Below, in pieces: positions 23,383 to 59,599 of a stretch of 64,000 nucleotides of DNA. The translations under genes were made by a program, and so were the position numbers. Numbering within the stretch: the stretch's first letter is position 1; each line of letters begins with the position of its first letter. Source of the stretch: Candidatus Eiseniibacteriota bacterium. GTDB taxonomy: Bacteria; Eisenbacteria; RBG-16-71-46. The DNA lies in the NCBI GenBank assembly GCA_035691845.1, contig DASSIN010000272.1:936-64935 (forward strand). Reading direction: 5' to 3'. The notes beneath the pieces are model-generated. The model was given only the letters and a program-made list of their open reading frames with translations. It made no database searches and was not told the origin of the DNA.

Positions 23383-23541
23383 GCCGGCGCGGCGTCGGGG
23401 TCGAAATCCGGCCGTGGCAGAAACGGTGGGAACATTGTCATTGTGCCACGCGCCCGAACCGCTCACCCTCGTGCCGTGACCCGTCGAACCCACGCCCACC
23501 GCCGCGCCGCGCGCCCCGGACCGCGCACGCGCCGCATCGCC

Positions 23542-32344: not shown

Positions 32345-33463
32345 TCAGAACCGCGACACCAGGGCGAGCTTCCCGTCGGGGCGCGCTTCGAGGTGCGCGA
32401 TCATGCGCCGACCCTTGGCGGTGGCGCTCGGCGTGATGGCGAGATCGTAGACGGTGCTGAACGCCTGCGCGCCGCCCGCGAGCAGGCCGAGGATCACCAT
32501 TGCGCCGGTCCCGGCATTGCCGTCCTCGAACGCCATCCCGACGCCGAGCGCCCCGACCACCATCCCGCCCGCGGCCACGCCCCGAATGATGAGCCCGCGT
32601 TTGGCGAGATCCCAGCGGCCGCCGGCCGTAAGCCCCACACTGGGTCCCACCAGCGCGCCCACCTCGCCGCCCAGTCCCAACGCCGCCTCCCACGCGAATT
32701 CCCGATCGCTGCCCGGGCGATCGATCGCGACGGCAATGATGGCAGGCGCGAGCGTGGCGCCGATTCCGATCGTCAGCGCCTGCGAGGGCGAGCGCGCATG
32801 CTTTCCGACGCTGGCGACGGCCGACGGCGGCCCCGCCGGGGGCGCCGTCGGCACACCCTGCGCGCGCGGCCTGCGCCACACCGTCCTCCAGCCCGAAGCC
32901 AGCGCGCCGATGCCTGCCCCCAGTCCGATCGAACCTGCCGCCGCCGCGGCGTTGATGACGGCCGGCGCCGCCTCGCGGTTGAATGCCCCCCGCACGAACG
33001 CCAGGCCCACCCCGGCGCCGATCAACGTCCCCGCCAGCACGTGCGAGCGCCGCACTTCGAGCCGTTCGACCTCGTTCCACTCGAGCGGCGAGGCGTGGGG
33101 CTGGGCCGGCGGACGCACGGCCACCACGCGCTGCTGCGAAGCCGCGAACCAGATCCCGACCGTGTCGAGATCGGCGCGTGGAAACAGCAGCGCGCCGCGC
33201 GCGAGCCACGCACGCACCGACTTCGATCCGATCTGACGCCGCAGCTTCGCCACCTCGGCGGACGAGGGGCCGATCCCGGGATCGCGCGACGCCGGCGCGT
33301 CGCCGGCGATCTCGAGCCGCTCGCCGAACGACGCCGGAGCGCCGGCGGCGTGCGCGGACGGCGCGGATGCGAGCGCGCATGCCGCCAGCACAGCCGCCAC
33401 CGCGGCGGCGTGGCGACGACGAAGGCTGGAGTGCACCCGTCCCATGCCCTCGCGCGGTCGCAT
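32345..33463 (-). CDS. Hypothetical secreted/membrane protein with Gly-zipper segments
   Basis: The signal peptide 'AAVAAVLAACALASAPSAHA' is followed by Gly/Ala-rich segments 'GAGVGLAFV', 'GSIGLGAGIGALASG' and 'GLGGEVGALVGPSVG'. No homology clue. The start may be at 33445. Confidence 0.4.
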   Translation of the reverse strand: MRPREGMGRVHSSLRRRHAAAVAAVLAACALASAPSAHAAGAPASFGERLEIAGDAPASRDPGIGPSSAEVAKLRRQIGSKSVRAWLARGALLFPRADLDTVGIWFAASQQRVVAVRPPAQPHASPLEWNEVERLEVRRSHVLAGTLIGAGVGLAFVRGAFNREAAPAVINAAAAAGSIGLGAGIGALASGWRTVWRRPRAQGVPTAPPAGPPSAVASVGKHARSPSQALTIGIGATLAPAIIAVAIDRPGSDREFAWEAALGLGGEVGALVGPSVGLTAGGRWDLAKRGLIIRGVAAGGMVVGALGVGMAFEDGNAGTGAMVILGLLAGGAQAFSTVYDLAITPSATAKGRRMIAHLEARPDGKLALVSRF

Positions 33464-42383: not shown

Positions 42384-43643
42384 ATGTTGCAGCGGGTGAT
42401 GGCGTGGATGGCGGTCGCGGCGGTGTCGCTCGCACTCGGGGCCCCGGCGCGCGCGCAGGAATGGAGGCGCGTCACGGCGCTGCCCGCGAGCGACGTGTTC
42501 GCGTTGCGGGCGATGGGCGACACGCTCGTCGCCGGCATGGACACCACCGTGTTCGTGAGCACGGATGGCGGCGGCACATGGCGCCCGCCCGTTCGGGTCG
42601 CGGTCGATGTGGCGGTGGTGGACGCGGTCCTGCTCCGGAACGGCCGGTCGTATGCGGGCACGTTGGGCCAGGGCGTGTTCGTCAGCGACGACCTGGGCGC
42701 GAGCTGGCAGCCGTTCAACGACGGCCTGACCGGCGGCCTGTTCGACTCGCAGCTCGACGTGGCCGATCTCGAAGCGAGGGGCGACAGCCTGTACGCGGCC
42801 ACCCAGGGTGCCGGCGTGTACGTGCGCAGGCTGACCCCGGCCGACACGTGGCATCCGTACGGTGACGCGTTCGAGCCCAACCAGGCGCCGAACGTCAGCG
42901 ACCTGGCGTCCGACGGCGCGCGGCTGGTGGCGTGCGCGGGCGGGAACGGCATGATGTTCACGCGCGATCCCGCCGACCCCGACTGGACGGTGAGCTTTCT
43001 CGACGACGTCGGCATCCACGCGGGGCTCGCCCCCGAAGCCGCGCTGTGGACGGGCTCGAGCTGGGTGGTGGGCACGAATCTCGGCGTGTTCGCGAGCCCC
43101 ACGGGCCTGCAGCCGTGGACGCGGACGCAGACGCCGCTCACCCAGGTCCACGGCAGCGCGTTCGCGCTGCGCGGTGGAACGCTGATCGGCGCGTTCGACC
43201 TGCAGGATCTCGCGGTGATCCAGGAGAGCGTGGACCAGGGCGCGACCTGGTCCAACGTGGAGACGCTGTTGCAGACGTTCGTCTACCAGCTCGTGGTGCA
43301 GGGCGGGAACCTGTTCGCCGCGCGCGCGGACGGGCTGTGGGTGCGCCGGGCCACGACGTCCGTGCCGGAGGCCCGTGGGCCGGGCGCGCTGCGAGTCGCG
43401 CTCGTCGGGCCCAACCCCGTTCGTGACGTGGCGCAGTTCCGGTTCGAGCTGCCGCGCGCGGGCGAGGCGGCGCTCGAGCTGTTCGACGTGGCGGGACGCG
43501 CCGCGGCGCGCGTATCGGGGTTCTGGAGCGCGGGCGTGCACGAGACGAGCGTGGATGCCGCCCAGCTCGCGCCCGGCGTCTACGGCGCGCGGCTGACCTC
43601 GGGCGGCGCCAGCGCCACGACGCGGGTGGTTCGGGTACTCTAG
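42384..43643 (+). CDS. Secreted BNR/Asp-box repeat protein (Ycf48/sialidase-like beta-propeller) with a FlgD-Ig / T9SS-like C-terminal domain
   Basis: The signal peptide 'MAWMAVAAVSLALGAPARA' is present. The Asp-box motifs are 'STDGGGTWRP', 'SDDLGASWQP' and 'DQGATWSNV'. The C-terminal domain reads 'VGPNPVRDVAQFRFELPRAGEAALELFDVAGR...GVYGARL'. Confidence 0.7.
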   Translation: MLQRVMAWMAVAAVSLALGAPARAQEWRRVTALPASDVFALRAMGDTLVAGMDTTVFVSTDGGGTWRPPVRVAVDVAVVDAVLLRNGRSYAGTLGQGVFVSDDLGASWQPFNDGLTGGLFDSQLDVADLEARGDSLYAATQGAGVYVRRLTPADTWHPYGDAFEPNQAPNVSDLASDGARLVACAGGNGMMFTRDPADPDWTVSFLDDVGIHAGLAPEAALWTGSSWVVGTNLGVFASPTGLQPWTRTQTPLTQVHGSAFALRGGTLIGAFDLQDLAVIQESVDQGATWSNVETLLQTFVYQLVVQGGNLFAARADGLWVRRATTSVPEARGPGALRVALVGPNPVRDVAQFRFELPRAGEAALELFDVAGRAAARVSGFWSAGVHETSVDAAQLAPGVYGARLTSGGASATTRVVRVL

Positions 43644-44605: not shown

Positions 44606-45151
44606 TCACGCGCGCCCGAGCCGCTCCATGTCCTCCGCCAGCGCCGCCAGCGCTTCGCCGGTGAGCATGTCCCTCGCCATCGGGAACAGGATCATCTCCT
44701 CCTTCTCGAAGTGGGCGTCGATCAGCGCCAGCAGCCGTCCGGCGGCGGCGTGCAGCGTCGCGGCGTCCGCATCCCCCGCCGCAAGGGCTCCCAGCCGTGC
44801 GCCGCCTGCCACGATGGCAGGATGCTCGACCTCCTCCAGCTCGTGGAGCGTGGCGCGGAACCGCGCGGTCTGCTCATGGATGTCGCGGTGCTCGTCCCGC
44901 ATCGCCGCGGTGGGCCCGCCACCCTCGCCGAACACGCGCTCCAGCGCGGGAAACAGCACCTCGTCCTCCTTGCGCGCGTGGGCCGCCAGCGCCTCGCCCA
45001 ATGCATGCACCACACCCGCCAGGTTCAAGCCCGGCCGCATGATGGCGGGCCCGGCCCCCGCATCCGGCGGGCGCGCGGCCGCGCGCAGCGGCGCGAGCTG
45101 GCCGGCGATCCGGCGGTGATCCTCCAGCAGCACATCGATGGCATCACCCAT
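44606..45151 (-). CDS. Hemerythrin HHE cation-binding domain protein
   Basis: 'IDVLLEDHRRIAGQL' and 'LIDAHFEKEEMILFPMA' are present, with the H/E ligands spaced as in the hemerythrin fold. The N-terminal 31 aa of the ORF were trimmed. Confidence 0.7.
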   Translation of the reverse strand: MGDAIDVLLEDHRRIAGQLAPLRAAARPPDAGAGPAIMRPGLNLAGVVHALGEALAAHARKEDEVLFPALERVFGEGGGPTAAMRDEHRDIHEQTARFRATLHELEEVEHPAIVAGGARLGALAAGDADAATLHAAAGRLLALIDAHFEKEEMILFPMARDMLTGEALAALAEDMERLGRA

Positions 45152-45252
45152 GGCGTCCTCCGCGGGGTGGCGCGCCGGCGCCGCGGCGCCGCAGTCGGCG
45201 GCGTGCCGGCCTCGATCCGGCGCATCGGCCACCGCGCCCGTCACATTGCACC

Positions 45253-45287
45253 TTGACAGAGTTCGACTGCGGATTCAAATTTTGAAT
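45253..45287 (+). promoter_or_regulatory. AT-rich promoter/operator patch: TTGACA -35 box plus perfect 7-1-7 palindrome ATTCAAATTTTGAAT upstream of the TetR-led aryl-CoA operon
   Basis: This is the only AT-rich stretch in the 153-bp divergent intergenic region. TTGACA is at 45253-58 and the palindrome at 45273-87. Confidence 0.35.
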
Positions 45288-45304
45288 GTAGCTTCAAACG
45301 CAAC

Positions 45305-45994
45305 GTGCCGATGATCCGGGGACAGGTCGTCATGGCTCGATCCCAGCACTCGCACGCACCCGCCGCCCGCCGCACCCGGCGCCGCCCGCCGGCCTCCGCC
45401 AACGGCGGCACGCCGCGCATCCGCGCCAAGCGCCAGCGCCGGCGCGCCGAGATCCTGCACGCCGCGCTGCGCGCGTTCGCCGAGAAGGGCTACCACCGCA
45501 CCACGCTCGACCACATCGCCGAGCACGTGGGCGTGGGGAAGACCGCCCTCTACCATTACTTCCCCGACAAGGAAGCGATCCTGTACGCGTGCCACCGCGA
45601 GTCGCTCGACGAGCTGGCGCGCATCCTGCGCGAGGCCGACCGGCTCGACTCCGCCTCGGACCGGCTGGCGCATGTCGTGCGCGAACACGTGCGCGTCATG
45701 ACCGACACGCTGCAGGGCTCTCCGCTGGCGTTCGAAGTGACGGCGCTGTCGCCCGCCCGGCAGGCCGGGCTGATCGCGGAGCGTGACCGCTACGAGCGCC
45801 GGCTGCGGCGCATCATCGAGGATGGCATGCGCGGCGGCGAGTTCCGCAAGGGGAATTCCAAGATCGCGGTGTTCGTGGTGCTGGGCGCGATCAACTGGAT
45901 CGCGCGCTGGTACCACCCGGAAGGGGAGCTGCACGCCTCGGAGCTGGGGCGCGAGTTCGTGGACCGGCTGATGGGAGGCCTCGCACGACGATGA
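45305..45994 (+). CDS. TetR-family transcriptional regulator (first gene of the operon)
   Basis: The HTH 'TTLDHIAEHVGVGKTALYHYFPDKEAIL' is present. The stop overlaps the next start (ATGA). Confidence 0.8.
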   Translation: MPMIRGQVVMARSQHSHAPAARRTRRRPPASANGGTPRIRAKRQRRRAEILHAALRAFAEKGYHRTTLDHIAEHVGVGKTALYHYFPDKEAILYACHRESLDELARILREADRLDSASDRLAHVVREHVRVMTDTLQGSPLAFEVTALSPARQAGLIAERDRYERRLRRIIEDGMRGGEFRKGNSKIAVFVVLGAINWIARWYHPEGELHASELGREFVDRLMGGLARR

Positions 45995-47100
45995 GCACGG
46001 GACTGGAGCACGGAAGTCGCGCCGGACGGGGACGCCCACGCGCGGAGACGATGAAGGCGGTGCGACTGGTGGCGGTGGGGCAGCCGCTGATCGTGGACGA
46101 GGTGCCGGTGCCGCGGCCCGGGCCCGACGAGGTGCTGATCCGGGTGGCGGGCTGCGGCGTGTGTCATACCGACATCGGCTTCTGGAAGGACGGCGTGCCC
46201 ACGCGGCACGCGCTGCCGCTCACGCTCGGACACGAGATCAGCGGCACGGTGGTGGAAGCGGGGCCGGGACGCGCCGAGCTGCTGGATCGCGAGGTGATCG
46301 TGCCGGCGGTGATTCCGTGCGGCGCGTGCGAGCTGTGTCGCGCGGGGCGCGGGAACATCTGCCGGCGGCAGCTCATGCCCGGCAACGACATGGACGGCGG
46401 GTTCGCCGAGTACGTGGTCGCGCCGGCGCGCGGCCTGTGCGTTGTGGAGGCGCGCGGAGCGTACGCGCTCGCCGAGCTGTCGGTGGTCGCCGACGCCGTC
46501 ACCACGCCCTACCAGGCGGTGGCGCGCAGCGGCCTCCAGGCCGGCGACCTCGCGATCGTGGTGGGCGCCGGCGGGGTGGGCGCCTATTGCGTCCAGATCG
46601 CCGCGGCGCGCGGGGCGCGCGTGATCGCGATCGACGTGAACGCGCGCCGCCTGGCCTCGCTCGCCGCGCACGGCGCCGGGCTCGGCATCGACGCCGCGGC
46701 GAACGACTTCAAAGCGATCAAGCGGCAGGTGCAGTCGCAGGCCGCGTCGTGGAGATGCGCGGAGCACGGCTGGAAGATCTTCGAGTGCTCGGGCCAGCCC
46801 CGGGGACAGGAGACGGCATTCGGGCTGCTGACACACGCCGCGACGCTGATGGTGATCGGCTTCACACTGGCGAAGACCGAGCTGCGATTGAGCAACGTCA
46901 TGGCGTTCGACGCAACGGTGCAGGGCACGTGGGGATGCCGTCCGGAGCTGTACCCCGAAGCGCTGCGGCTCGTCACCGACGGCGCGGTCACGCTGGCGCC
47001 GTTCATCGAGCGTCACCCGATGCGCGACGCCCCCGCCGTGATGCAGAAGGTGGCCGACCACGCGCTCGACAGGCGCGCGATCCTCGTGCCGGACTGGTAA
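45991..47100 (+). CDS. Zn-dependent MDR alcohol dehydrogenase, candidate 6-hydroxycyclohex-1-ene-1-carbonyl-CoA dehydrogenase (Had)
   Basis: The Zn-ADH signature 'GCGVCHTDIGFWKDG...LGHEISGTVVEAGPG' and the Rossmann motif 'VVGAGGVGAYCVQIA' are present. The Had assignment rests on operon context. Confidence 0.65.
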   Translation: MSTGLEHGSRAGRGRPRAETMKAVRLVAVGQPLIVDEVPVPRPGPDEVLIRVAGCGVCHTDIGFWKDGVPTRHALPLTLGHEISGTVVEAGPGRAELLDREVIVPAVIPCGACELCRAGRGNICRRQLMPGNDMDGGFAEYVVAPARGLCVVEARGAYALAELSVVADAVTTPYQAVARSGLQAGDLAIVVGAGGVGAYCVQIAAARGARVIAIDVNARRLASLAAHGAGLGIDAAANDFKAIKRQVQSQAASWRCAEHGWKIFECSGQPRGQETAFGLLTHAATLMVIGFTLAKTELRLSNVMAFDATVQGTWGCRPELYPEALRLVTDGAVTLAPFIERHPMRDAPAVMQKVADHALDRRAILVPDW

Positions 47101-47136
47101 ACCCGCCGGCGCGGCCGGGCAGGGAAGGAGCAACCC

Positions 47137-48240
47137 ATGCTGAAGAGCCACACGCTGGTGCAGGACATCGCGTTCCGGAACATCGGCTACGAGCTCAAGC
47201 CGGCGCGGGATCCGGCCGGCAACGCCGTGTCCGGACTGTTCAACGCCTGGATCGTGCTCGACAACCCATCGCAGCACAACAGCTACACCACCGAGGCCGT
47301 GAAGGAGATCGTGCTGGCGTTCCGGCAGGCCAGCATGGATCGCCGCGTGGTGGCATGCGTGTTCACGGCGGTGGGGAACCGCGCGTTCTGCACCGGCGGC
47401 AACACCCGCGAGTACGCCGAGTACTACGCGGGCAATCCGCAGGAATACAAGCAGTACATGCGGCTGTTCAACGACATGATCGACACCATCCTGCGCTGCG
47501 ACAAGCCGGTGATCAACCGCGTGAACGGCATGCGGGTCGCAGGCGGGCAGGAGATCGGCATGGCGTGCGACTTCAGCGTCGCCGCCGACACCGCCACGTT
47601 CGGGCAGGCCGGGCCGCGCCACGGCTCGGCCCCGGACGGCGGCTCCACCGACTTCCTGCCGCTGTACGTGGGGTTCGCGCACGCGATCGAGAGCGGCGTG
47701 CTGTGCGACCTGTGGAGCGCGCACAAGGCGCTCCAGCTCGGGCTCCTGAACCAGATCGTGCCGGCGCTGAAGGTGAACGGCGAGTGGATCGCGAATCCGC
47801 TCGTGATCACCGACCGCATGACGGACGCGTTCGGCAACCTGGTGTTCGGTGACTTCAAGCACGGCGCCGAGCGCGAGGCCGCCGAGCGCGTGCTGGCCGG
47901 CGCCACCGCCGATCTGACCCGCCTCGACCAGGCGGTGGAGCAGTTGTGCACGCGGCTGCTGATGCTGATGCCGGAGTGCGTCTCGAAGACGCTGAGCAGC
48001 CTGCGCAAGCACAAGCAGTGGCACTGGGACAACACCAGCGTCACCAATCGCGAGTGGCTCGCGCTCAACATGATGACCGAGGGCCGGATCGGGTTCCGCG
48101 CCTTCAACGCCGGCGCGCGCGGCCGGCGCGAGGTGGACTTCATCAAGCTCCGCCAGCTGCTGGCCGAGGGGCACGCGTGGGATGACGAGCTGATGCGCGC
48201 CGTGTCGCCGGACGGGGCGCGGCTGCAGGAGCAGCACTAG
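47137..48240 (+). CDS. oah: 6-oxocyclohex-1-ene-1-carbonyl-CoA hydrolase (Oah/BamA-type ring-cleaving crotonase)
   Basis: This is a 367-aa crotonase-fold protein, whereas typical enoyl-CoA hydratases are about 260 aa. It has 'FCTGGN' and 'VNGMRVAGGQEIGMACD'. It also has 'QHNSYTT' and 'GQEIGMA', matching as I recall them the peptide motifs targeted by the published bamA marker primers. It sits next to a Zn-ADH and a BCR-like enzyme. Confidence 0.75.
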   Translation: MLKSHTLVQDIAFRNIGYELKPARDPAGNAVSGLFNAWIVLDNPSQHNSYTTEAVKEIVLAFRQASMDRRVVACVFTAVGNRAFCTGGNTREYAEYYAGNPQEYKQYMRLFNDMIDTILRCDKPVINRVNGMRVAGGQEIGMACDFSVAADTATFGQAGPRHGSAPDGGSTDFLPLYVGFAHAIESGVLCDLWSAHKALQLGLLNQIVPALKVNGEWIANPLVITDRMTDAFGNLVFGDFKHGAEREAAERVLAGATADLTRLDQAVEQLCTRLLMLMPECVSKTLSSLRKHKQWHWDNTSVTNREWLALNMMTEGRIGFRAFNAGARGRREVDFIKLRQLLAEGHAWDDELMRAVSPDGARLQEQH

Positions 48241-48250
48241 ACGCCGGGCG

Positions 48251-49024
48251 GTGGCGCGCGCGGCGAAGGAGCGGTCGACGATGGATCTCGGGCTGCGGAA
48301 CAAGGTGGCGATCGTGACCGGCGGAGCCGACGGCATCGGCGGCGCGATCGCCGTCGCGCTGGCGGCCGAGGGCTGCGACGTTGCGATCGTGGACCGCAGC
48401 GCCGATGCCGGCTGCACGCTGCAGGCGGTGGCCGCACACGGCCGGCGCGGGCGCGCGATCCAGGCCGACGTGCGCGACGCGGCGGCCGCCGCGGCCATCG
48501 TGGCGGACGTGGCGCGCGAGTTCGGGCGGCTCGACATCGTGGTGTGCAACGCCGGCATCACCGCGGACGCCACGCTCGCGCGGATGACCGAGGCGCAGTG
48601 GGACGACGTCATCGACGTCAATCTCAAGGGCTGCTTCAACTACATGCACGCCGCCGCCCGCCACTTCATGGAGCGCAAGGGCGGCCGGATCGTGAACATC
48701 GCGTCGATCAACGGGCTGCGCGGCAAGTTCGGGCAGGCCAACTACGCCGCCTCCAAGGGCGGGATGATCGCGATGAGCAAGACGGCCGCCCGCGAGCTGG
48801 GGCGCTACAACGTGACGGTGAACGTGGTCGCGCCCGGCATGGTGATGACGCCGATGGCGCGGCGGCTGCCCGCCGATGTGATCGAGCGGGCGGTGGACGA
48901 GACGGTGCTCGGGCGGCTGGTGACGCCCGAGGACTGCGCGAACGCCGTGGTGTTCCTGTGCTCCGAGGGGGCGCGGCACATCACCGGAGAGGTGATCCAG
49001 GTCGATGGCGGCCAGTATCTCTAG
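48251..49024 (+). CDS. SDR-family 3-hydroxyacyl-CoA dehydrogenase/oxoacyl reductase
   Basis: 'KVAIVTGGADGIGGAIAVALAAEG', 'CNAGIT' and the catalytic 'YAASKGGM' are present. An alternative start is at 48281. Confidence 0.8.
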   Translation: MARAAKERSTMDLGLRNKVAIVTGGADGIGGAIAVALAAEGCDVAIVDRSADAGCTLQAVAAHGRRGRAIQADVRDAAAAAAIVADVAREFGRLDIVVCNAGITADATLARMTEAQWDDVIDVNLKGCFNYMHAAARHFMERKGGRIVNIASINGLRGKFGQANYAASKGGMIAMSKTAARELGRYNVTVNVVAPGMVMTPMARRLPADVIERAVDETVLGRLVTPEDCANAVVFLCSEGARHITGEVIQVDGGQYL

Positions 49025-50198
49025 ACATGCCGGCCGGGACGGCCGGCCCAGGGTCGGAATCGTCGGCATCGGCCATACCGCGTTCGGCCGGCGCGGCGAC
49101 GCCAGCGTGCAGGAGCTGGCGTTCGAGGCGTTCGCGGCGGCGCTGAACGACGCCGGGATCGGGCGCGACGACGTCGACGCCTCGGTGATCGCCGCGGTGC
49201 CCGAGTACCACAAGCAGCGCTCGCCCGCGGGCGTGGTGCACGAGTACCTGGGGCTCCCGCCCCGGCCGACGTGGCTGGTCGAGGCGGCGTGCGCCTCGGG
49301 CAGCGCCGCGATCCGCACGGCGTGGCTCGAGATCCGCGCCGGCGCCCACGACGTGGTGGCCGTGATCGGCTGCCAGAAGATGACCGAGCTGCCGACGGCC
49401 GAGCTGCTCGGCCTGATGGGGCGCGTCGGGGACGTGCAGTGGGAGTCGTGCTTCGGCACCACGTTCCCGGCCTACTACGCGATGTTCGCGCGCCGGCACA
49501 TGCACGAGCACGGCACCACCTCCGAGCAGCTCGGCGCGGTGGCGGTCAAGAACCACTACTACGGCGCGCGCAATCCGCTGGCGATGTTCCGCAAGGAGGT
49601 GACGCCGGAGCAGGTGGCGCAGTCGGAGCCGGTGGCGACGCCGCTCAAGGTGTTCGACTGCTGCGCCAACGCGGACGGCGCCGCATGCGTGATCCTGGCG
49701 CGCGAAGAGCGCGCGCGCGACATCTCCGATCGCCCCGTATGGCTGGCCGGCATGGGCGGCGCGTCCGACACCATGTCGGTGCTGCGGCGCACGGATCTCG
49801 CCGGCCTGCCGAGCGCGCAGCGCGCGGCCGCCGAGGCCTACGCCATGGCCGGCGTCGGTCCGCGCGACATCCGCGTGGCCGAGGTCCACGACTGCTTCAC
49901 CATCGCCGAGCTGCTGGCGTACGAGGACCTGAGGTTCTGCGCGCGCGGCGCGGGCGGGCGGTTCGTGGTCGAAGGCGAGAGCCGCGTGGGCGGGAGGACG
50001 CCGGTGAACGTGGACGGCGGCCTCAAGGCCAAGGGCCATCCGATCGGCGCGACCGGCGTGTCGATGACGTGCGAGATCGTGAAGCAGCTGCGCGGCGAGG
50101 CGGGCGAGCGCCAGGTGCCGGGGGCCGACATCGGGCTCACCCACAACGTCGGAGGAATCGGCCAGTACTGCTTCGTGCAGGTGCTGGCGAGGGAGTAG
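49005..50198 (+). CDS. Thiolase-like protein (SCP2/nsLTP-type, non-canonical thiolase)
   Basis: 'RVGIVGIGHTAFGRRGD' is present, with the active-site Cys in 'VEAACASGSAAIRTA' and the C-terminal 'HPIGATGVSMTCE'. Confidence 0.75.
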   Translation: MAASISRHAGRDGRPRVGIVGIGHTAFGRRGDASVQELAFEAFAAALNDAGIGRDDVDASVIAAVPEYHKQRSPAGVVHEYLGLPPRPTWLVEAACASGSAAIRTAWLEIRAGAHDVVAVIGCQKMTELPTAELLGLMGRVGDVQWESCFGTTFPAYYAMFARRHMHEHGTTSEQLGAVAVKNHYYGARNPLAMFRKEVTPEQVAQSEPVATPLKVFDCCANADGAACVILAREERARDISDRPVWLAGMGGASDTMSVLRRTDLAGLPSAQRAAAEAYAMAGVGPRDIRVAEVHDCFTIAELLAYEDLRFCARGAGGRFVVEGESRVGGRTPVNVDGGLKAKGHPIGATGVSMTCEIVKQLRGEAGERQVPGADIGLTHNVGGIGQYCFVQVLARE

Positions 50199-50201
50199 GC
50201 G

Positions 50202-50699
50202 ATGTTCAAGTGGTTCGGCAAGGTGAACTTCACGCCGTGCACGCGCGTGGCGGAGTTCGCGGCGCACCTGAAGGACGGCCGCATGATGGCGGCGCGCTGC
50301 CGCGGCTGCGGCGCGCACAGCTTTCCGCCGCGCGCCGACTGCGAGGCGTGCATGGGCCGCAGCTTCGAGTTCGTCGAGATCAGCGGCCGCGGCACGCTGT
50401 ACACGTACACGACCGTGGCGGCGGCGCCCACCGGCTTCGAGCGCGCGGCGCCGTACACGATCGGGGTGGTGGCGCTGGAGGAGGGCGGGCGGGCGCTGGC
50501 GTGGATCGGCGACACCATCCACGAGCGCGACCTGCGGATCGGGATGCCGCTGCAGCTCGTGCCGCGGGTCGATGACGAATGCGAGCAGATCGCCGTCTCG
50601 TACACGCTCGAACGCGCGGGCACCACGTGGTTCAAGGCGGAGACGGCGGGACCGCGCGAGCCCGAAACCGCCGCCGCGCACGAAGGAGGCCCGCGATGA
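50202..50699 (+). CDS. DUF35 Zn-ribbon/OB-fold protein (partner of the SCP2-type thiolase)
   Basis: The Cys4 ribbon 'CRGCGAHSFPPRADCEAC' is followed by an OB-fold segment 'GRGTLYTYTTV'. Confidence 0.75.
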   Translation: MFKWFGKVNFTPCTRVAEFAAHLKDGRMMAARCRGCGAHSFPPRADCEACMGRSFEFVEISGRGTLYTYTTVAAAPTGFERAAPYTIGVVALEEGGRALAWIGDTIHERDLRIGMPLQLVPRVDDECEQIAVSYTLERAGTTWFKAETAGPREPETAAAHEGGPR

Positions 50700-51451
50700 T
50701 CCACACCTCGATTCGCGACGGGATCGCGACGCTGACGCTCGACCACCCACCGCTCAACATCCTGACGCAGGCGATGCTGGTCGAGCTGCGCGGCGCGCTC
50801 GGGCAGCTCGCGGACGACCACGACGTGCGCGTGCTGGTGGTACGGGCCGCAGGCGATCAGTTCTCGGCCGGCGCCGACGTGGGCGAGCATCTCCCGCCGC
50901 GCCACCGCGAACTGATTCCCGAGTTCGTCGCCACCGTGCGCCGGCTGGCGGAGTTCCCGACGCCGGTGGTGGCGGCGGTGCGTGGCCGCTGCCTGGGCGG
51001 CGGGTTCGAGCTGGTGCAGGCGGCCGACATCGTCGTGGCGGGCGAGGGCGCCACGTTCGGCCAGCCCGAGATCCGGCTCGGCGTCTCGCCGCCGGCCGCG
51101 TGCGCGCTGTTGCCCGGGCTCGTCGGCCCCGCGTTCGCCGCCGAGCTGGTGCTGTTGGGCGACATCGTGGACGCCGCGCGCGCGCGGGACGCGGGGCTGG
51201 TCGGCCGCGTCGTGCCCGACGCGCGCGTGGACGACGAGGCGCACGCGCTGGCCGCGCGGATGGCGCGTTCCAGCGGCGCCGCGCTGCGGCTCACCAAGCG
51301 CGCGCTGCGGCAGGGGCTCGACGCCCGGCGCGCCCAGGCGCTGGCCGCATGCCAGGCGATCTATCTCGATGAGCTGATGCGCACCGAAGACGCCGAGGAG
51401 GGCCTGCGGGCGTTCCTCGAGAAACGGACTCCCCAGTGGACGCACGCATGA
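50696..51451 (+). CDS. Enoyl-CoA hydratase/isomerase (candidate cyclohexa-1,5-diene-1-carbonyl-CoA hydratase, Dch)
   Basis: The crotonase motifs '[16 protein letters not shown]' and '[19 protein letters not shown]' are present. An AAGGAGG RBS precedes it and the start overlaps the DUF35 stop. Confidence 0.7.
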
Positions 51452-52617
51452 ACACGCCACGCACGTTCCCGGAATGGGAAGGGAAGCCGATCGAGGAGAT
51501 CCTGTACCACTGCCGCGAGGCGCTGGAGGATCCCGCGTTCCCGACGGTGAAACGCTGGCGCGAAGCCGGCGGCAAGGTGCTCGGGCACTTCCAGGTGTAC
51601 TTCCCCGAGGAGATCGCGCACGCGGCCGGCATGCTGCCGTTCAAGCTGCGCGGCGCCCCGGTCGAGCCCACCCAGGCCGATTCGCGCTTCGGGTCGTACC
51701 TGTGCTCGATCGTCAAGACCACGCTCGAGATCGCGCTCACGCACGCCGTCGACCTCGACATGTTCGTCACCCACCCGATCTGCGACGCGGCCCGCAACCT
51801 GGCCGGCGTGTGGGGCCGCAATTTCGAGTTCCCGTGCGAGATCCTGTACCTGCCCCAGAACGCGAATTCCGCCCACGCCCCCGAATACCTGCGCGGCGAG
51901 TACCAGCGCCTGCTGCATCGGATCGAAGGCGTCGCCGGACGGCACGTCACCGACGACGACCTGCGCCGCTCGCTGGCGGTGTTCAACGACAACCGCGCGC
52001 TGCTGCGGCGCCTGTACGACGTCAAGCGCGCCACGCCGTGGCGACTGGCCGCGGACGACGCCTACGCGCTGATGGCGGTCGGCGGCATGATCCCGCGCGA
52101 AGAGCACAACCGGCTGCTGTCCGCGGCGCTGCCGCTGATCGAACAATCCGGGGCGCGCGCCCAGGACCGCATCCGCATCGTGTTCGAGGGCGGGTTCTGC
52201 GAGCAGCCACCGCTCGAGCTGATCCGCGCCATCGGCCGCTCGTGCTACGTCGTGGACGACGATCTGCTGATCGGCATGCGCTGGATCACGGACGACGTCC
52301 CGCGCGACGGCGACCCGCTGCTGCAGCTCGCGCGCGCGTACCTCGAGCGGTCGTCGTACAGCCCGGTGCAGCACGATCTGCGCAAGCCGAAGGAGCGGAT
52401 GCTGCTGCAGCGCATCGAGCGCTCCTCGGCGCGGGCCGCGATCCTCACCGCCGCCAAGATGTGCGAGCCCGGCCTCGAGGAGCAGGTCGCCTACACCCAC
52501 GCGCTCGACGAAGCGCGCGTTCCGTATTTCGTGAGCGAGTTCCAGGAGAACATGACCAGCTACGAACAGCTCGCGATCCAGCTCGAGACGTTCGTCGAGA
52601 ACCTGATGTTCGACTGA
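51448..52617 (+). CDS. 2-hydroxyacyl-CoA dehydratase / benzoyl-CoA reductase family subunit (HGD-D fold; BcrC/BadD-like)
   Basis: The family N-terminus '[29 protein letters not shown]' and '[15 protein letters not shown]' are present. The ATG overlaps the upstream stop (ATGA); an alternative GTG is at 51436. Confidence 0.7.
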
Positions 52618-52629
52618 GAGGCCATCCCA

Positions 52630-53933
52630 TGCACGATCCACCGGCTGACGCGACGCTCGCAGGGCGGGGCAACCACGAAGGCGCCCGGCTGTTCCGGGCG
52701 TGGTTCGACGACTTGAGCGCGGCGGCGCAGGCCGGCCGCGGCGCCGCGTACGTGTTCGTGATGGGCAGCCTGGCCGAGCTGCTGCGCACGTTCGACCTGC
52801 CGGTGGTGTTCCCGGAGATCAACTCGCTGCAGACCGCGGTGCGGCACGTGGCGCACGATTACCTGAACCAGGCCGAAGACTACGGCTATTCGCCCGACAT
52901 CTGCGGCTACGTGAAGGCCGACGTGGCCACGCAGATGCGCGCGGGCGCGCTGCCGATGGGGACGATCCCCAAGCCGGCGATCGCGCTGAGCACGAACGCG
53001 TGCAACACCTACATCAAGTGGGCGGAGATCTGGGAGCGCATGTACGGCATCCCCACGGTCACGCTCGACGTGCCCGGCAACCGCGCGGCCGGGGCGGCGT
53101 CCCAGCCCGGCAGCCCGGAGTTCGAGAACGATCTGCGCTACGTTGCCGCGCAGCTGCGCGAACTGATTCCGCTGCTCGAGAAGGTGAGCGGCGTCGCGTT
53201 CGACGTCGACCGGCTGCGCGAGCACATGGCACACGCCAACGCCATGAATCGCGACTGGAAACGCGTGCTCGAGCTGAACCGCAGCCACCCGGCGCCGTTC
53301 AACGCGTTGTCGGACGGCACCATCTTCCTCGGCGTCGCCAACGCGCAGCGCGGCACGCCGGAGGGTGCGCGCTACTTCGCCGAGCTGGTGGAGGAGATGG
53401 AGTACAAGAGCGCGCACGGGATCGGCACGCCCACCGCGGAGCACTACCGGCTGATCTTCGTGGGCGTGCCGTGCTATCCGATCTTCCGGCGGTTCTCGGA
53501 GCTGTTCAGCGAGCTGGGTGGCGCGTTCGTCCACTCCACATATCTGTGGTTCGCGTCCGGCGGCGCGCATACGGGATTCCAGTGCCGGCTCGACGATCCG
53601 CTGATGGGCCTCGCCGAGGGGCTGCTGGTCACGGTGCGCGAGGCGATGGACAGCATGTTCTTCGTCGCCGATCCGCTGCTGCACATGGTGCGTGACTACG
53701 CCGCGGACGGCGTGGTGTTCCATCCCATCAAGAGCTGCCGCACGGTGTCGACCGGACTGGCCGACACCCGCCGCGCGCTGATGCAGGCGCGCGACGTCCC
53801 AAGCCTGTTCATCGAATCGGACATGATGGACCGCCGCGTGGTGTCGGAGGCGCAGCTCAAGAATCGCATCGACGCATTCTTCGAAGGCCTGGCGACGCGC
53901 CGGCGGCAGGCGGCCGTCGTCGCGCAGGCGTGA
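52630..53933 (+). CDS. 2-hydroxyacyl-CoA dehydratase / benzoyl-CoA reductase family subunit (HGD-D fold; BcrB/BadE-like)
   Basis: '[28 protein letters not shown]' and '[12 protein letters not shown]' are present. It is 434 aa long. Confidence 0.7.
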
Positions 53934-53944
53934 GCGGGGGGACC

Positions 53945-54763
53945 ATGGCATACGCAGCCGGCGTGGACGTCGGATCCACGCAGACCAAGGCGGTGATCAT
54001 CGACGAACACCGCAGGATCGTGGCGCGCGCGCTGATCGAGACCGGCGCCAACGTGACCGCCGCGGCCGAGAGCGCGTTCCAGCAGGCGCGCGCGGCCGGC
54101 GACGTGGCCGAGGAGGAGGTCGAGTACGTGGTCGGCACCGGCTATGGGCGCTACAAGGTCACGTTCGGAAACTCGCAGGTGACCGAGATCAGCTGCCACG
54201 GACGCGGCGCGGTGCAGATGTTCCCGCTCACGCGCACGGTGGTGGACATGGGCGGGCAGGACACCAAGGCGATCCGCGTGTCGCCCACCGGCGAGATCCT
54301 CGACTTCTGCATGAACGACAAGTGCGCGGCCGGCACCGGCCGGTTCCTGGGCGCGGCCTCGTCCGCGCTCGACATCCCGCTCGACCAGCTCGGGCCCACC
54401 GCGCTGCGCGGCGAGCGCCCGGTCAAGATCAGCACCACCTGCACGGTGTTCGCCGAGTCCGAAGTGCTGTCGTGGCTCGGCAAGGGCAAGAAGATCCAGG
54501 ACATCCTGCTCGGCGTGCACCAGTCGATCGCCGTGCGCTCGGCCGGTCTGCTGCGCCGCGTCGGGATCGAGCCGCAGGTGACGTTCACGGGCGGCGTGGC
54601 GCGCAACGTCGCCATGATCAAGACGCTCGAGGAGCGCCTCGGGCTCACCGTCAACGTGAGCGAGGACTCGCATTACATGGGCGCGCTCGGCGCCGCGCTG
54701 TTCGCGCTCGACCACATTCTCGCCGGACGCGCGGCGCCGCAGCCGAGCCAGGGGGCCGCATGA
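53945..54763 (+). CDS. BadF/BadG/BcrA/BcrD-type ATPase (acyl-CoA reductase/dehydratase activator subunit)
   Basis: The ASKHA fold motifs '[16 protein letters not shown]' and '[16 protein letters not shown]' (cluster-ligating Cys) and '[10 protein letters not shown]' are present. Confidence 0.75.
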
Positions 54764-55617
54764 CATACACGTCGGGCATCGACATCGGCTCCACGTACAC
54801 CAAGGTCGTGATCCTGAACGAGCGCTGCGAGATCGCGGCGAGGATCATGATGCCGACCGGCTTCCAGCTCGCGCAGGTGGCGGAGCAGGCGCATGGTCGC
54901 GCCGTGGCCGCCGCGGGGCTCAGCCCCGAGGACGTGGCATACGCCGTCGCCACCGGGTTCGGCCGGCATCAGGCGACGTTCGTGGACATCCAGGTGACGG
55001 ACCTCACCGCGGCGGCGCGCGGCGCCACGGCGCTGTTCCCCGGGACGCGCACCATCCTCGACGTGGGCGGCCAGACGATGAAGGCCAGCGGCCTCACCGA
55101 GGACGCGCGCGTGAAATCGTTCCGGCTGAACGACAAGTGCGCGGCCGGCACCGGCGCGTTCCTCGAGAAGACCGCGCGCTACATGGGATTCTCGACCGGC
55201 GAGATCGGGCCGCTGGTCGCCACCTCCAAGACACCGGTTCCGATCTCGGGGGTGTGCGCCGTGTTCGCCGAATCCGAGGTCATCAATCATCTGTCGCAGG
55301 GCGCCGCGCCGGCCGACATCATGCACGGCGCGATCGTGTCGCTGGTGGGGCGCTCCGTGCAGCTCATGAAACGCGTCAGGATGGAGCCCGAGTTCACGCT
55401 GATCGGCGGAATCCTGCGGTTCTCGACGATGGTGGACGTCATCCGCCGCGAGCTGAAGTCGGAGGTCAACGTGCCGGAAGGGGACCTGGTGCAGTTCATC
55501 CCCGCCTACGGCGCCGCGTACCTGGGACAGCGCCGGCTGCAGCGGCTCGCGGCCGCGGGCTCCGAGACCGCGCTCGCCGAGCGCAGCGGCGCGCCGGACG
55601 TGGCGCCGCTGCGATGA
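54760..55617 (+). CDS. BadF/BadG/BcrA/BcrD-type ATPase, second paralogous subunit
   Basis: '[17 protein letters not shown]', '[16 protein letters not shown]' and '[10 protein letters not shown]' are present. The start overlaps the preceding stop (ATGA). Confidence 0.75.
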
Positions 55618-55940
55618 GCGCGGGCGGGAGCGCGCCGCCGCCGCGCCGCGGCGATCCGCTCCCCATCGTCGCGGGCGTCCCGCCGCGTCCGGCGTCCTCG
55701 CCGCCACCGGACGATCTCGGCGAAGCGGACCCCGCGCGCCTGGCCCAGGGCTGGGAACGCCGCTTCATCGCCCAGGGCGCGCGCCTGGACGAGATGATGC
55801 GCCTCTATGAGGCGCTGGGCTACGAGGTGGCGGCCGATCCCGTCTCCGGCGGGCGGCCCGGCGTCGAATGCGAGGGGTGCCGGCTCGCCACCGGGCTCGG
55901 GTTCAAGTTGATCTACACGCGCAGCAGGCGCACATCGTGA
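55614..55940 (+). CDS. Small hypothetical protein (108 aa), last gene of the operon, with a C-terminal 'ECEGC' motif
   Basis: It is translationally coupled to the previous gene (ATGA). It has a Pro-rich N-terminus and contains 'RLDEMMRLYEALGYEVAADPVSGGRPGVECEGCRLATGLGFKLIY'. No homology clue. Confidence 0.4.
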   Translation: MSAGGSAPPPRRGDPLPIVAGVPPRPASSPPPDDLGEADPARLAQGWERRFIAQGARLDEMMRLYEALGYEVAADPVSGGRPGVECEGCRLATGLGFKLIYTRSRRTS

Positions 55941-56899: not shown

Positions 56900-57295
56900 A
56901 TGAAGGGGTTCGTGGGGAACATCGAGGAGATGGTCGAGCACAATGCGGATTTCCGTCACGTCACGTACACCGGCAAGAAGCTTCAGCTCGTGCTGATGTC
57001 GCTCAAGCCGGGTGAGGAGATCGGCGAGGAGCTGCACCCCGATCACGACCAGTTCTTCCGGATCGAAAAAGGCAAGGGAGTGGTCACGATCGACGGACAC
57101 CGGACCGAGATCAAGGGCGACTTCGGCGTGCTGGTTCCGGCCGGCTCGAAGCACAACATCAAGAACACGGGCGACCGCGAGATGAAGCTGTACACGCTGT
57201 ACGGTCCGCCGCAGCACGAGGACGGCACGGTGCAGGTCACCAAGGCCGATGCCATCTCGTCGAAGGAGCATTTCGCCGGGCACACCACCGAGTGA
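56900..57295 (+). CDS. Cupin-domain protein (131 aa), compositionally atypical at about 55-60% GC
   Basis: The cupin motifs 'GEEIGEELHPDHDQFFRIEKG' and 'VLVPAGSKHNIKNTG' are present. GC content is visibly lower than the 70%+ flanks. Confidence 0.7.
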   Translation: MKGFVGNIEEMVEHNADFRHVTYTGKKLQLVLMSLKPGEEIGEELHPDHDQFFRIEKGKGVVTIDGHRTEIKGDFGVLVPAGSKHNIKNTGDREMKLYTLYGPPQHEDGTVQVTKADAISSKEHFAGHTTE

Positions 57296-57439
57296 AGCGC
57301 CGCCTGCGGCTCGCACCGCGGGCGTGATGCGAACACGGCCACCCGACTCGCACGGGTGGCCGTTTCGTCTCCCGCCCCCTCGCGCACGCGCCGGCGGGAG
57401 TGCTTTCCATCGCCGTCGCCGGACCGGTATGGTCGGCGC

Positions 57440-59599
57440 GTGCGTCACGCCCTGATCCGGAACGCGCGCGTCGGCGCGGCGCCCGTCGCACTGTTCGCCA
57501 CGCTGCTCGCGTGCGCGTGCGTGGCCCGCGCGCACGCGTCGGGCTATCCGCCCACCCGGCGCGACAGCGTGGTGGACGACCTTCACGGCGTTCAGGTGGC
57601 CGATCCCTATCGCTGGCTCGAGCGGCTGGACGACGACTCCACGCGCGACTGGGTGAACGCCCAGACCGGGGTCACCGAGGCGTACCTGGCCCGCGTTCCC
57701 GGCCGCGACGCGATCCGGCGGCGGCTCGAGACGCTGTGGAACGTTCCCCGGACCGATGTCCCGTGGCGCGAGGCCGGGCGACTGTTCTACGTCGCCAGCT
57801 CCGGCCGGCAGCGCCAGCCCGTGCTGTACACGGTGCGCAACCCGGGCGACCGGCCACGGGTCGTGCTCGATCCGCACACGATCTCGCCCGATGGCTCGAT
57901 CGAGGTGGGGGACTACGCCGTGTCGCCCGACGGGCGCTGGCTGTCGTACTCCGTGTCGCGCGGGGGCGCCGACATCGGCGAGACCCACGTGCGGGATCTC
58001 GCCACCGGCCGCGACCGCGACGACGTGGTGCATGGCGCGTGGGGCGAGGCGTGCTGGACGTTCGACGGCGGCGGGTTCTTCTACATGCGCCCGCCGGCGG
58101 CGGCCCCGGGGGATTCGTCCGGCGCGGCGCGCGCGGGCAAGCAGCTGTTCTATCACGTGCTCGGCCAGCCCCAGTCGCGCGACCGGCTGCTGCGCCAGTG
58201 GAACGACGACGTGCGCTGGGTCTACACGATGCTGAGCGACGACGGACGCCGGGCGATCGTCGTGGCGCAGCGGGGCGAGAACGCCTCGATGAGCGTGATG
58301 GATCTCGGGCACGCGCGCGCCCCCGATCTGTCCGCACCGCTCGTGCCGCTGCTCGCCGGCCACGACGTCGGCAACACGCCGATCGGCACGGTGGGCGATG
58401 TGCTGTACGTGGTCACCCACCTCGACGCGCCCCGCGGCCGGGTGATCGCGCTCGATCTGCGCCAGGGCGCGGGCGCCCGGCCGCGCACGGTGATTCCGGA
58501 ATCGGACGACGTGATCCAGAACGCCACCGTGGCCGGCGACCGGCTCGCGCTCCAATACCTGCACGACGTGTGCAGCCGGCTCTCGCTGTTCGCGCTCGAC
58601 GGGCGCGCCGTGCGCGAGGTGGCGTTGCCCGGGGTGGGCGCCATCGGCTGGCCGCTCAACGGCCGCAACTCGGCGCCGGAGCTGTGGTACGCGTTCACGT
58701 CGTACCTGACGCCGGCCACCGTGTATCGCTGCGACATCGCGAGCGGACGCAGCGCCGCGTTCCATCCTGCGCACGTGCCATTCGACCCCGGCGCGTACGA
58801 GACCCGGCAGGTGTTCTATCGCTCGAAGGACGGCACGCGCGTGCCGATGTTCGTCACCGCGCGCCGCGGCATCGCGCTCGACGGCTCGCATCCGGTACTG
58901 CTCACCGGCTACGGGGGGTTCGGCACCGTGTTCGCGCCCCCCTACCGCCCCGATCTGCCGCCGTGGCTCGAGCACGGCGGCGTCTACGCGGCCGCCAACC
59001 TGCGCGGGGGCGGCGAATACGGCGAGCCGTGGCACCGCGCCGGCAGCCGCGAACACAAGCAGACCAGCTTCGACGACTTCATCGCGGCGGCGGAATACCT
59101 GGTGGCGCGCGGCTACACGCGTCCGGAGCGGCTGGCGATCTACGGGCACTCGAACGGCGGGCTGCTGATCGGCGCCGCGATCACGCAGCGGCCCGACCTG
59201 TTCGCGGCCGCGGTGCCGAACGCGGGCCACTACGACATGCTGCGCTTCCATCGCTTCACGGTCGGGGCCGGCTGGATTCCCGAGTACGGATCACCCGACA
59301 GCGCCGCCGATTTCGCCGTGCTGCGCGCGTACTCGCCGCTGCACAACGTCCGCGCCGGCACATGCTATCCGGCCACGCTGCTGCTCGCCGCCGACCACGA
59401 CGACCGCGTGGTGCCGAGCCATTCCTACAAGTTCACCGCCGCGCTGCAGGCGGCGCAGGCGTGCGACGCGCCGGTGCTGCTGCGTGTCGCACGCAACGCC
59501 AGCCACAGCTACGCGTCCGACACCGAGGCGATCGCCGAGGCCACCGACATGTGGGCGTTCGTCGCGGCGCGCGTGGGCGTGTCGTTGACGTCGCCGTGA
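57440..59599 (+). CDS. Prolyl oligopeptidase (S9A family serine peptidase), secreted
   Basis: The N-terminal beta-propeller region 'DPYRWLERLDDDSTRDWVNAQT' is present. The catalytic Ser is in 'GHSNGGLLIGAAITQRPDLFAAAV' and the Asp/His are in the C-terminal region. The GTG start gives a signal peptide; ATG 57356 is an alternative. Confidence 0.8.
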   Translation: MRHALIRNARVGAAPVALFATLLACACVARAHASGYPPTRRDSVVDDLHGVQVADPYRWLERLDDDSTRDWVNAQTGVTEAYLARVPGRDAIRRRLETLWNVPRTDVPWREAGRLFYVASSGRQRQPVLYTVRNPGDRPRVVLDPHTISPDGSIEVGDYAVSPDGRWLSYSVSRGGADIGETHVRDLATGRDRDDVVHGAWGEACWTFDGGGFFYMRPPAAAPGDSSGAARAGKQLFYHVLGQPQSRDRLLRQWNDDVRWVYTMLSDDGRRAIVVAQRGENASMSVMDLGHARAPDLSAPLVPLLAGHDVGNTPIGTVGDVLYVVTHLDAPRGRVIALDLRQGAGARPRTVIPESDDVIQNATVAGDRLALQYLHDVCSRLSLFALDGRAVREVALPGVGAIGWPLNGRNSAPELWYAFTSYLTPATVYRCDIASGRSAAFHPAHVPFDPGAYETRQVFYRSKDGTRVPMFVTARRGIALDGSHPVLLTGYGGFGTVFAPPYRPDLPPWLEHGGVYAAANLRGGGEYGEPWHRAGSREHKQTSFDDFIAAAEYLVARGYTRPERLAIYGHSNGGLLIGAAITQRPDLFAAAVPNAGHYDMLRFHRFTVGAGWIPEYGSPDSAADFAVLRAYSPLHNVRAGTCYPATLLLAADHDDRVVPSHSYKFTAALQAAQACDAPVLLRVARNASHSYASDTEAIAEATDMWAFVAARVGVSLTSP

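Follow-up and report, generated by a model that had tools for sequence, protein, structure and literature searches.

A TetR-led operon in Candidatus Eisenbacteria that likely encodes an ATP-dependent aryl-CoA ring reductase and its ring-opening enzymes

A predicted class I ring reductase

We analysed a stretch of 64,000 nucleotides from contig DASSIN010000272.1 of a Candidatus Eisenbacteria genome (assembly GCA_035691845.1), referred to below as the window, and found within positions 45311–55940 a run of 12 co-directional plus-strand genes that very likely forms a TetR-controlled operon for a class I, ATP-dependent aryl-CoA ring reductase, a set of ring-opening enzymes of the Thauera type and a short beta-oxidation module. 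Class I reductases are divided into BCR-, MBR- and BZD-types (Fuchs et al. 2025, PMC11971306), named after benzoyl-CoA reductase (BCR), 3-methylbenzoyl-CoA reductase (MBR) and the Bzd proteins, and it is to the MBR (MbdONQP-like) type that the enzyme of the window is predicted to belong. Related loci, wherever they are mentioned here, are the best 80, all from metagenome-assembled genomes (MAGs), of at least 578 matching stretches in species-representative genomes.

Two adjacent genes at 51448–52617 (+; gamma subunit, MbdN/BcrC-like) and 52629–53933 (+; beta subunit, MbdO/BcrB-like, 434 aa) encode two different catalytic subunits of the HGD-D fold (PF06050, 203 and 214 bits), and they are followed by genes for two distinct BcrAD_BadFG ATPases (PF01869), the MbdQ-like alpha subunit at 53945–54763 (+; 272 aa, 208 bits) and the MbdP-like delta subunit at 54760–55617 (+; 285 aa, 172 bits), each best matched by a different Mbd subunit, as is characteristic of class I reductases. 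An initial annotation of this DNA, made from the letters alone, had already proposed a class I architecture of two HGD-D and two ATPase subunits, a proposal that is borne out here and can now be refined to the MBR type; the lengths given there for beta and delta stand, while gamma is 389 aa from its ATG (393 aa from the GTG chosen earlier) and alpha is 272 rather than 273 aa.

The MBR assignment is made by comparison with proteins of known structure. Gamma matched MbdN (PDB 9g87_B) with 552 bits and 59.7% identity and beta matched MbdO (9g87_A) with 518 bits and 54.2% identity, both over essentially the full length, while alpha matched MbdQ (9gai_D) with 419 bits across residues 1–264 and delta matched MbdP (9gai_C) with 291 bits across residues 1–269, so that gamma, beta, alpha and delta pair one-to-one with MbdN, MbdO, MbdQ and MbdP of the MBR complex (PDB 9g87, 9gai, 9gal, 9gba). 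The best matches outside Mbd proteins were far weaker for the catalytic subunits, at 113 bits for gamma and 103 bits for beta, and came to 220 bits for alpha and 170 bits for delta. HadC and HadB of 2-hydroxyisocaproyl-CoA dehydratase scored those 113 and 103 bits, about five times below MbdN and MbdO, in keeping with the earlier claim that the HGD-D pair are not dehydratases, and the BzdNO sequences in the PDB scored 84–90 bits. It should be said that the grouping of the HGD-D subunits, like that of the crotonase discussed below, was judged by model and PDB sequence scores.

Curated models agree on the family and place the enzyme outside its named subfamilies. The top NCBIfam models were BcrC for gamma and BcrB for beta, yet the cut-offs of the Thauera BCR-type set (TIGR02259–02263) were reached by none of the four subunits (BcrC 253.4 against 421.15 bits, BcrB 215 against 486.55, BcrA 215.4 against 578 and BcrD 124.9 against 312.85), and since the catalytic subunits fall below the BcrB and BcrC cut-offs, the enzyme is not of the Thauera BCR-type. 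The BcrCBAD and BadDEFG enzymes of Thauera aromatica and Rhodopseudomonas palustris share the heterotetrameric architecture seen here, but all four subunits of the window lie well below the equivalog cut-offs of that subfamily. Scores for the BZD-type models (TIGR03190–03192) were also too low (BzdN 78.7 against 453.8, BzdO 102.8 against 448.6 and BzdQ 184.5 against 380.2), as were those for the HadB and HadC dehydratase equivalogs NF052455 and NF052456 (136.9 against 750 and 143.1 against 700).

Iron-sulfur ligands and the active site

Cysteine invariance was assessed across 68–80 orthologues, depending on the subunit. In the substrate-binding beta subunit, Cys92, Cys125 and Cys370 are invariant in 80 orthologues and align to Cys95, Cys128 and Cys380 of BzdO, the ligands of a water-bearing [4Fe-4S] cluster (PMC11971306), which points to the same three-cysteine active-site cluster in beta. 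Judged by sequence position, Glu63 of the conserved ‘PE’ motif in beta probably corresponds to Glu65 of BzdO. For gamma, all 71 orthologues keep Cys86, Cys112 and Cys339, and HadC has cysteines at the positions with which these align; at the same time, gamma has neither the second cysteine of the BzdN CxxC motif nor the cysteine of the DDQC motif. Without these extra cysteines no [8Fe-9S] double cubane is to be expected, and the enzyme is for this reason not of the BZD-type. BzdNOPQ of Aromatoleum/Azoarcus (PDB 8s02) is a member of the same family with the same active-site cluster in its O subunit, differing from the enzyme of the window in its weak sequence matches, in the cysteines of BzdN and in an active-site histidine considered below.

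Both ATPases have an invariant Cys127 and an invariant Cys166, which we take, from the structure of HgdC, to be the positions of the ligands of a bridging [4Fe-4S] cluster. The cysteine pattern as a whole is that of MBR, with one [4Fe-4S] cluster predicted for each catalytic subunit and Cys127 and Cys166 in each ATPase.

Ring-opening and beta-oxidation enzymes

The zinc-dependent alcohol dehydrogenase encoded at 46051–47100 (+) has the Zn-ADH domains of Pfam and scored well above the equivalog cut-off for 6-hydroxycyclohex-1-ene-1-carbonyl-CoA dehydrogenase (Had; TIGR03201, 453.3 against 338.65 bits), and its predicted function is that of Had. A GGAG motif precedes its ATG at 46051; an alternative start at 45991 is possible, and the profiles start aligning at residue 21 of that longer form. 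The neighbouring gene at 47137–48240 (+) encodes a 367-aa crotonase that passed the model of the ring-cleaving 6-oxocyclohex-1-ene-1-carbonyl-CoA hydrolase (Oah; TIGR03200, 535.6 against 464.45 bits, covering positions 2–358 of the 360 in the profile), and it is by this score a predicted hydrolase of the Oah/BamA type. The BadI model gave only 113 bits with the same protein, which, together with the passing Oah score, suggests that the downstream route is like that of Thauera (Dch/Had/Oah) and unlike the BadK/H/I route of Rhodopseudomonas. Both assignments had been made in the initial annotation and are upheld by these scores.

The remaining downstream functions are read from gene position and context. 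An enoyl-CoA hydratase of 251 aa (50696–51451, +; ECH_1 182.6 bits) is encoded directly upstream of the gamma gene in 55 of the 69 related loci with room for it, and only from this conserved position do we infer that it is a cyclohexa-1,5-diene-1-carbonyl-CoA hydratase (Dch-like). The FabG-like short-chain dehydrogenase/reductase (SDR; 48281–49024, +; adh_short_C2 216 bits) passed no specific equivalog model, and it keeps the same position in 52 related loci; its context suggests a 3-hydroxypimelyl-CoA dehydrogenase. An SCP-x-type thiolase (49005–50198, +; 488 bits against the NF004720 cut-off of 420) would then be the 3-oxopimelyl-CoA thiolase, with the DUF35 protein encoded at 50202–50699 (+; a zinc ribbon and an OB fold, zf-ChsH2 39.2 bits and OB_ChsH2_C 70.7 bits, with a weak match to BbsA) as its presumed partner. 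The DUF35 gene was found in 22 related loci, among them every locus where the thiolase was detected; because the thiolase itself was found in only 18, the two appear to be an optional module.

The TetR regulator and a candidate operator

The first gene of the operon (45311–45994, +) encodes a TetR-family regulator (Pfam TetR_N 67 bits, TetR_C_24 102 bits), and a TetR gene heads the cluster in 44 related loci. Upstream of it, at 45273–45287, lies a perfect palindrome, ATTCAAA-T-TTTGAAT, that occurs once in the window against an expectation of 0.01. In 27 of 45 related loci, the 260 nt preceding the TetR gene contain TTCAAA-N-TTTGAA with up to two mismatches, whereas the 1.23 Mb of these loci hold only 30 such matches in total, and the palindrome is probably the operator of the regulator. 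In a ranking against the PDB, the TetR protein was closest to TetR-family regulators that are uncharacterised (99 bits), and TetR proteins that sense acyl-CoA, such as KstR2 (62 bits), came next; with such sensors among its closest solved relatives, an acyl- or aryl-CoA inducer is plausible.

Gene layout

Since G+C is uniformly high in the window (0.69–0.76), most mechanically called open reading frames (ORFs) are spurious, and our gene calls rest on candidate starts, upstream Shine-Dalgarno-like motifs and profile alignment. A single plus-strand frame is marked along the whole operon interval by a third-codon-position G+C of 0.85–1.0, which supports every called gene. Consecutive genes are separated by gaps of 3–56 nt or overlap by 4–20 nt. 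The initial annotation had described 13 packed genes in a segment given as starting at 45253; the tight packing holds, and every domain named there was confirmed by Pfam, but the interval contains 12 genes, a DUF302 gene following outside it, and the start coordinate 45253 is that of a TTGACA hexamer. This hexamer (45253–45258, +), read from the sequence, is on weak evidence a possible −35 box of the operon promoter; scanning with consensus motifs gave no complete sigma-70 promoter, and no plus-strand terminator for the operon either. Recent horizontal transfer of the operon finds no support in its composition, the operon G+C of 0.69–0.73 matching that of the rest of the window.

A conserved fifth gene of the reductase module

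The last gene of the operon is a small ORF of 108 aa with a CxxC motif (55614–55940, +), the start of which overlaps the stop codon of the delta gene by 4 nt. Of the 65 related loci with room for it, 61 have a homologue after the delta ATPase gene (for example at 7754–8077 of locus L002 and 5005–5244 of locus L084), and the small CxxC gene is thus a conserved fifth gene of the reductase module. No chain in the solved MBR complex corresponds to its product. The family shares a core of about 65 residues, DP.R.A.GWERRF..D..R..E...LY..LG.EV.ADP......C..C.L.....F..IYTR. Searching 1.84 billion representative proteins with a profile gave 744 relatives, of which 244 had E ≤ 1e-10, and among the 150 matches listed nearly all were 70–130 aa long.

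For the ORF of the window, neither Pfam nor PDB sequences nor a fold comparison gave a match; ten family members had no meaningful Pfam match at E ≤ 1, and the family profile likewise had none among PDB sequences. Database labels are equally uninformative, the identical record being named ‘hypothetical protein VFK69_12855’ and the ten members also ‘hypothetical protein’. Of five distant members looked up, four lie on contigs that give genomic context. The three with a readable upstream flank each come after a BcrAD_BadFG ATPase gene, and a full HGD-D/HGD-D/ATPase/ATPase cluster is visible on one of their contigs. On a fourth distant contig the upstream flank is cut off, and genes for TPR-like and HMGL-like proteins follow, as in Gemmatimonadota loci.

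The role of the small protein is perhaps in assembly, protection or electron delivery. A more specific proposal, which we offer as a speculation that is rather doubtful, is that it is an unrecognised fifth component of a large MBR-like clade known so far from Gemmatimonadota and Eisenbacteria MAGs, either an electron adaptor with a metal or Fe-S centre bridging a dimer, in place of the ferredoxin that proteobacterial operons encode, or a factor that assembles or protects the oxygen-sensitive enzyme. If this were true, the class I ring reductases of these abundant soil and sediment phyla would use an accessory set unlike that of the textbook enzymes.

Conservation and neighbours of the operon

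The module is widespread among uncultured bacteria. More than 120 protein clusters were listed for the beta subunit at 75–84% identity, and all four reductase subunits were found in 68 of the 80 related loci. By record title, 59 of these loci come from Gemmatimonadota (including Longimicrobiales), 10 from Candidatus Eisenbacteria, 4 from Acidobacteriota-type bins and 3 from other phyla, with 4 lacking a taxon. The whole block of TetR, Had, Oah, SDR and enoyl-CoA hydratase genes is present in 27 of the 51 related loci with enough upstream sequence, and 8 loci are arranged differently, their Had gene being divergent and placed after the small CxxC ORF. A few loci with beta identities of 70–76% (L029, L042, L050, L007, L053, L061 and L074) come from bins assigned to Caldilineaceae, Akkermansiaceae, Acidimicrobiia or Acidobacteriota, which could reflect mis-binning or horizontal transfer. 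A tblastn search of plasmids with the beta subunit found distant HAD-like genes only, at no more than 27.6% identity.

The initial annotation had guessed Gemmatimonadota or a lineage related to the FCB group as the host, and the second of these is the one that fits, the host being Candidatus Eisenbacteria. Its remark that the pathway is not a well-characterised trait of such a lineage stands with a qualification, given that benzoyl-CoA degradation genes are mentioned in passing for Gemmatimonadota MAGs (PMC10581226) and benzoyl-CoA pathway genes for one Eisenbacteria MAG (bioRxiv 10.1101/2025.11.25.690425).

Divergent from the operon in the window is a gene for a hemerythrin-domain protein (44606–45244, −; Hemerythrin 82.9 bits). 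In 16 related loci, too, the cluster is bordered by a hemerythrin gene, which lies upstream of it or behind the small CxxC ORF (for example at 13213–13764 of L023), and we tentatively associate it with the operon; its product may protect or repair an oxygen-sensitive reductase. The hemerythrin gene of L084 (7753–8493) has the ScdA_N plus hemerythrin architecture found in Fe-S repair proteins.

Other recurrent neighbours include the alpha subunit of an IOR-like 2-oxoacid:ferredoxin oxidoreductase with a 2[4Fe-4S] domain in 10 loci and a POR gamma-type subunit in 12. In 10–12 Gemmatimonadota loci (for example L015 14690–16411 and L014 18456–19031) the reductase genes are followed after a few kb by those of this enzyme, which consists of a 573-aa subunit with TPP, POR_N and 2[4Fe-4S] domains and a 191-aa POR gamma-type subunit. 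Its position there fits the need of a class I reductase for a low-potential ferredoxin, and the enzyme may supply the reduced ferredoxin or, alternatively, be a link to aromatic amino-acid breakdown. Further neighbours were an HMGL-like enzyme in 23 loci (for example L018 14198–15448), a TPR/zinc-ribbon protein in 17 (L079 8622–9326), a beta-eliminating lyase of the tyrosine phenol-lyase/tryptophanase type in 8 (L060 4204–5562) and an isocitrate/isopropylmalate dehydrogenase in 7 (L022 13334–14413, −), none of these four with an obvious role in a benzoyl-CoA pathway, and a GltD-like Fe-S flavoprotein in 5.

Proposed mechanism and alternative explanations

If the operon works as its sequence suggests, the TetR repressor would sit on the palindrome at 45273–45287 until released by an acyl- or aryl-CoA. 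Benzoyl-CoA or a meta- or para-substituted analogue would be made by a ligase encoded elsewhere. The alpha/delta ATPase dimer, with a bridging [4Fe-4S] cluster held by Cys127 and Cys166 of each subunit, would use ATP hydrolysis to drive ferredoxin-derived electrons to the [4Fe-4S] cluster of gamma, from where they would pass to the three-cysteine, water-bearing [4Fe-4S] cluster of beta, and the substrate would be reduced there to a cyclic 1,5-dienoyl-CoA. Water would then be added by the hydratase, the alcohol oxidised by Had and the ring opened by Oah to give 3-hydroxypimelyl-CoA, which the SDR and the thiolase with its DUF35 partner would convert to glutaryl-CoA and acetyl-CoA. The substrate could be benzoyl-CoA or substituted analogues of it.

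Several observations weigh against this account. The MBR subfamily has no curated NCBIfam model or threshold, and placement in it is by bit scores; every BCR equivalog cut-off in NCBIfam (BcrA–D and BzdN/O/Q) is above the score of the corresponding subunit; and the clade is known from sequence alone. In the active site, the catalytic His131 of BzdO aligns with Tyr128 of beta, a position that is Phe in MbdO, and details of proton delivery may therefore differ. The regulator scored only 39.7 bits against MbdR (4uds), 29th among TetR proteins in the PDB, and is not an orthologue of it. The hydratase fell below the Dch cut-off (TIGR03189, 178.7 against 292.5 bits), EchA19 scoring slightly higher at 184, and its PDB matches were generic crotonases; of the Dch/Had/Oah set put forward initially, Had and Oah are supported by their cut-offs and Dch is assigned by position. 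Lastly, an AMP-binding ligase is not a recurrent neighbour across the related loci, and no aryl-CoA ligase, ferredoxin or glutaryl-CoA dehydrogenase, nor a 2-oxoacid:ferredoxin oxidoreductase, was found among the window genes scanned with Pfam or checked for cysteines. The initial annotation had noted the lack of a benzoate-CoA ligase and of a ferredoxin gene, correctly for the genes so covered, but overstated the case in calling the route complete: the window lacks the ligase, the electron donor and whatever follows glutaryl-CoA, and the pathway encoded there is incomplete at both ends.

[quoted passage not shown] The closest characterised relative is, after all, named 3-methylbenzoyl-CoA reductase, the subunits fail the benzoyl-CoA reductase cut-offs, and the mbd cluster is likewise TetR-controlled with its own hydratase, dehydrogenase and hydrolase genes (PMC4424350). 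Beyond these likenesses the two systems differ: identity to MbdO and MbdN is only 54–60%, the regulator is not that of mbd and the candidate operator is of a different sequence kind, the gene order here is N-O-Q-P with the downstream-pathway genes placed before, the ferredoxin (MbdM) and ligase (MbdA) genes of mbd are missing from the cluster, and the host belongs to Eisenbacteria/Gemmatimonadota rather than Betaproteobacteria. Had and Oah, moreover, pass models built on the unsubstituted pathway. MBR is reportedly promiscuous and also reduces benzoyl-CoA, and if so, similarity to MBR does not imply methyl specificity. We consider such a specialisation unlikely.

An MBR-like reductase acting on something other than a benzoyl-CoA, such as a partially reduced polycyclic or an alicyclic acyl-CoA, with neighbours serving another ring-opening route, would likewise account for the missed benzoyl-CoA reductase cut-offs, for a hydratase that looks generic and for the lack of a benzoate-CoA ligase nearby, both among the window genes scanned and in the related loci. 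It is hard to reconcile with Had and Oah, which pass the cut-offs of equivalogs specific to C6 monocyclic intermediates and keep their synteny with the reductase across tens of genomes, and we regard it as very improbable. Least credible of all, in our view, is that the genes encode a 2-hydroxyacyl-CoA dehydratase of the HgdAB/HadBC kind with duplicated activator genes, serving amino-acid fermentation. HadBC and its activator HadI do share with the enzyme of the window the HGD-D superfamily fold, present in both catalytic subunits, the positions of the Fe-S ligands and a homologous ATPase; both ATPases pass the activator-domain model TIGR00241, and NCBI labels the orthologues ‘2-hydroxyacyl-CoA dehydratase family protein’. 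However, the HadB and HadC equivalog scores are a small fraction of their cut-offs, the PDB matches to HadBC are about five times weaker than those to MbdNO, the ATPases are two distinct proteins that pair one-to-one with MbdQ and MbdP instead of a single homodimeric activator, and the genomic context is different, with Had and Oah equivalogs from the benzoyl-CoA pathway surrounding the genes. An MBR-type class I reductase coupled to Thauera-type ring opening remains, in our judgement, the most probable function of the operon.

Other genes in the window

The operon is followed by genes for a DUF302 protein (starting at 55937 or 55991 and ending at 56377, +), a cupin (56900–57295, +) and an S9 prolyl oligopeptidase (57356–59599, +). 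We considered these as members of the system and rejected them; counterparts were absent from all 80 related loci, and they are for this reason probably unrelated to the operon. Elsewhere in the window are a Der GTPase gene (6110–7420) and a large Ada/AlkA fusion (21393–23018, +) that combines an Ada zinc-binding domain, an AraC helix-turn-helix (HTH), AlkA_N and an HhH-GPD glycosylase, followed by a small gene (22858–23382) whose product resembles, by its sequence, a methylated-DNA methyltransferase. Two adjacent DJ-1/PfpI-domain genes (23476–24543 and 24540–25670, +) overlap by 4 nt, the former with the domain fused to an AraC-type HTH and the latter with an N-terminal heavy-metal-binding (HMBD) motif.

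Regarding secreted proteins, the FlgD-Ig C-terminal domain reported earlier was recovered (FlgD_ig in the gene at 36851–38608, 33.1 bits against a cut-off of 27), while the C-terminal domain said to be typical of the type IX secretion system was not, Por_Secre_tail in the gene at 42384–43643 reaching only 19.5 bits against a cut-off of 27. Three coding regions, 2014–2988 (+), 17592–18803 (−) and 32345–33400 (−), had no Pfam match at E ≤ 1e-4; they are 324, 403 and 351 aa long and are well supported by high third-position G+C.

Implications

Work on class I benzoyl-CoA reductases has centred on a few Proteobacteria. Two modestly new elements of the system described here, its conserved small CxxC gene and its conserved candidate operator, offer concrete handles on it. 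Orthologues of the beta subunit are labelled ‘benzoyl-CoA reductase subunit B’ by JGI and only ‘2-hydroxyacyl-CoA dehydratase family’ by NCBI, and surveys based on the latter label would thus miss the trait. Our comparison shows that many uncultured Gemmatimonadota and Eisenbacteria share, conserved and in synteny, an MBR-like reductase together with the full ring-opening set, and since soils and sediments commonly harbour both phyla, they may contribute to the anoxic turnover of aromatic compounds derived from lignin, amino acids or pollutants.

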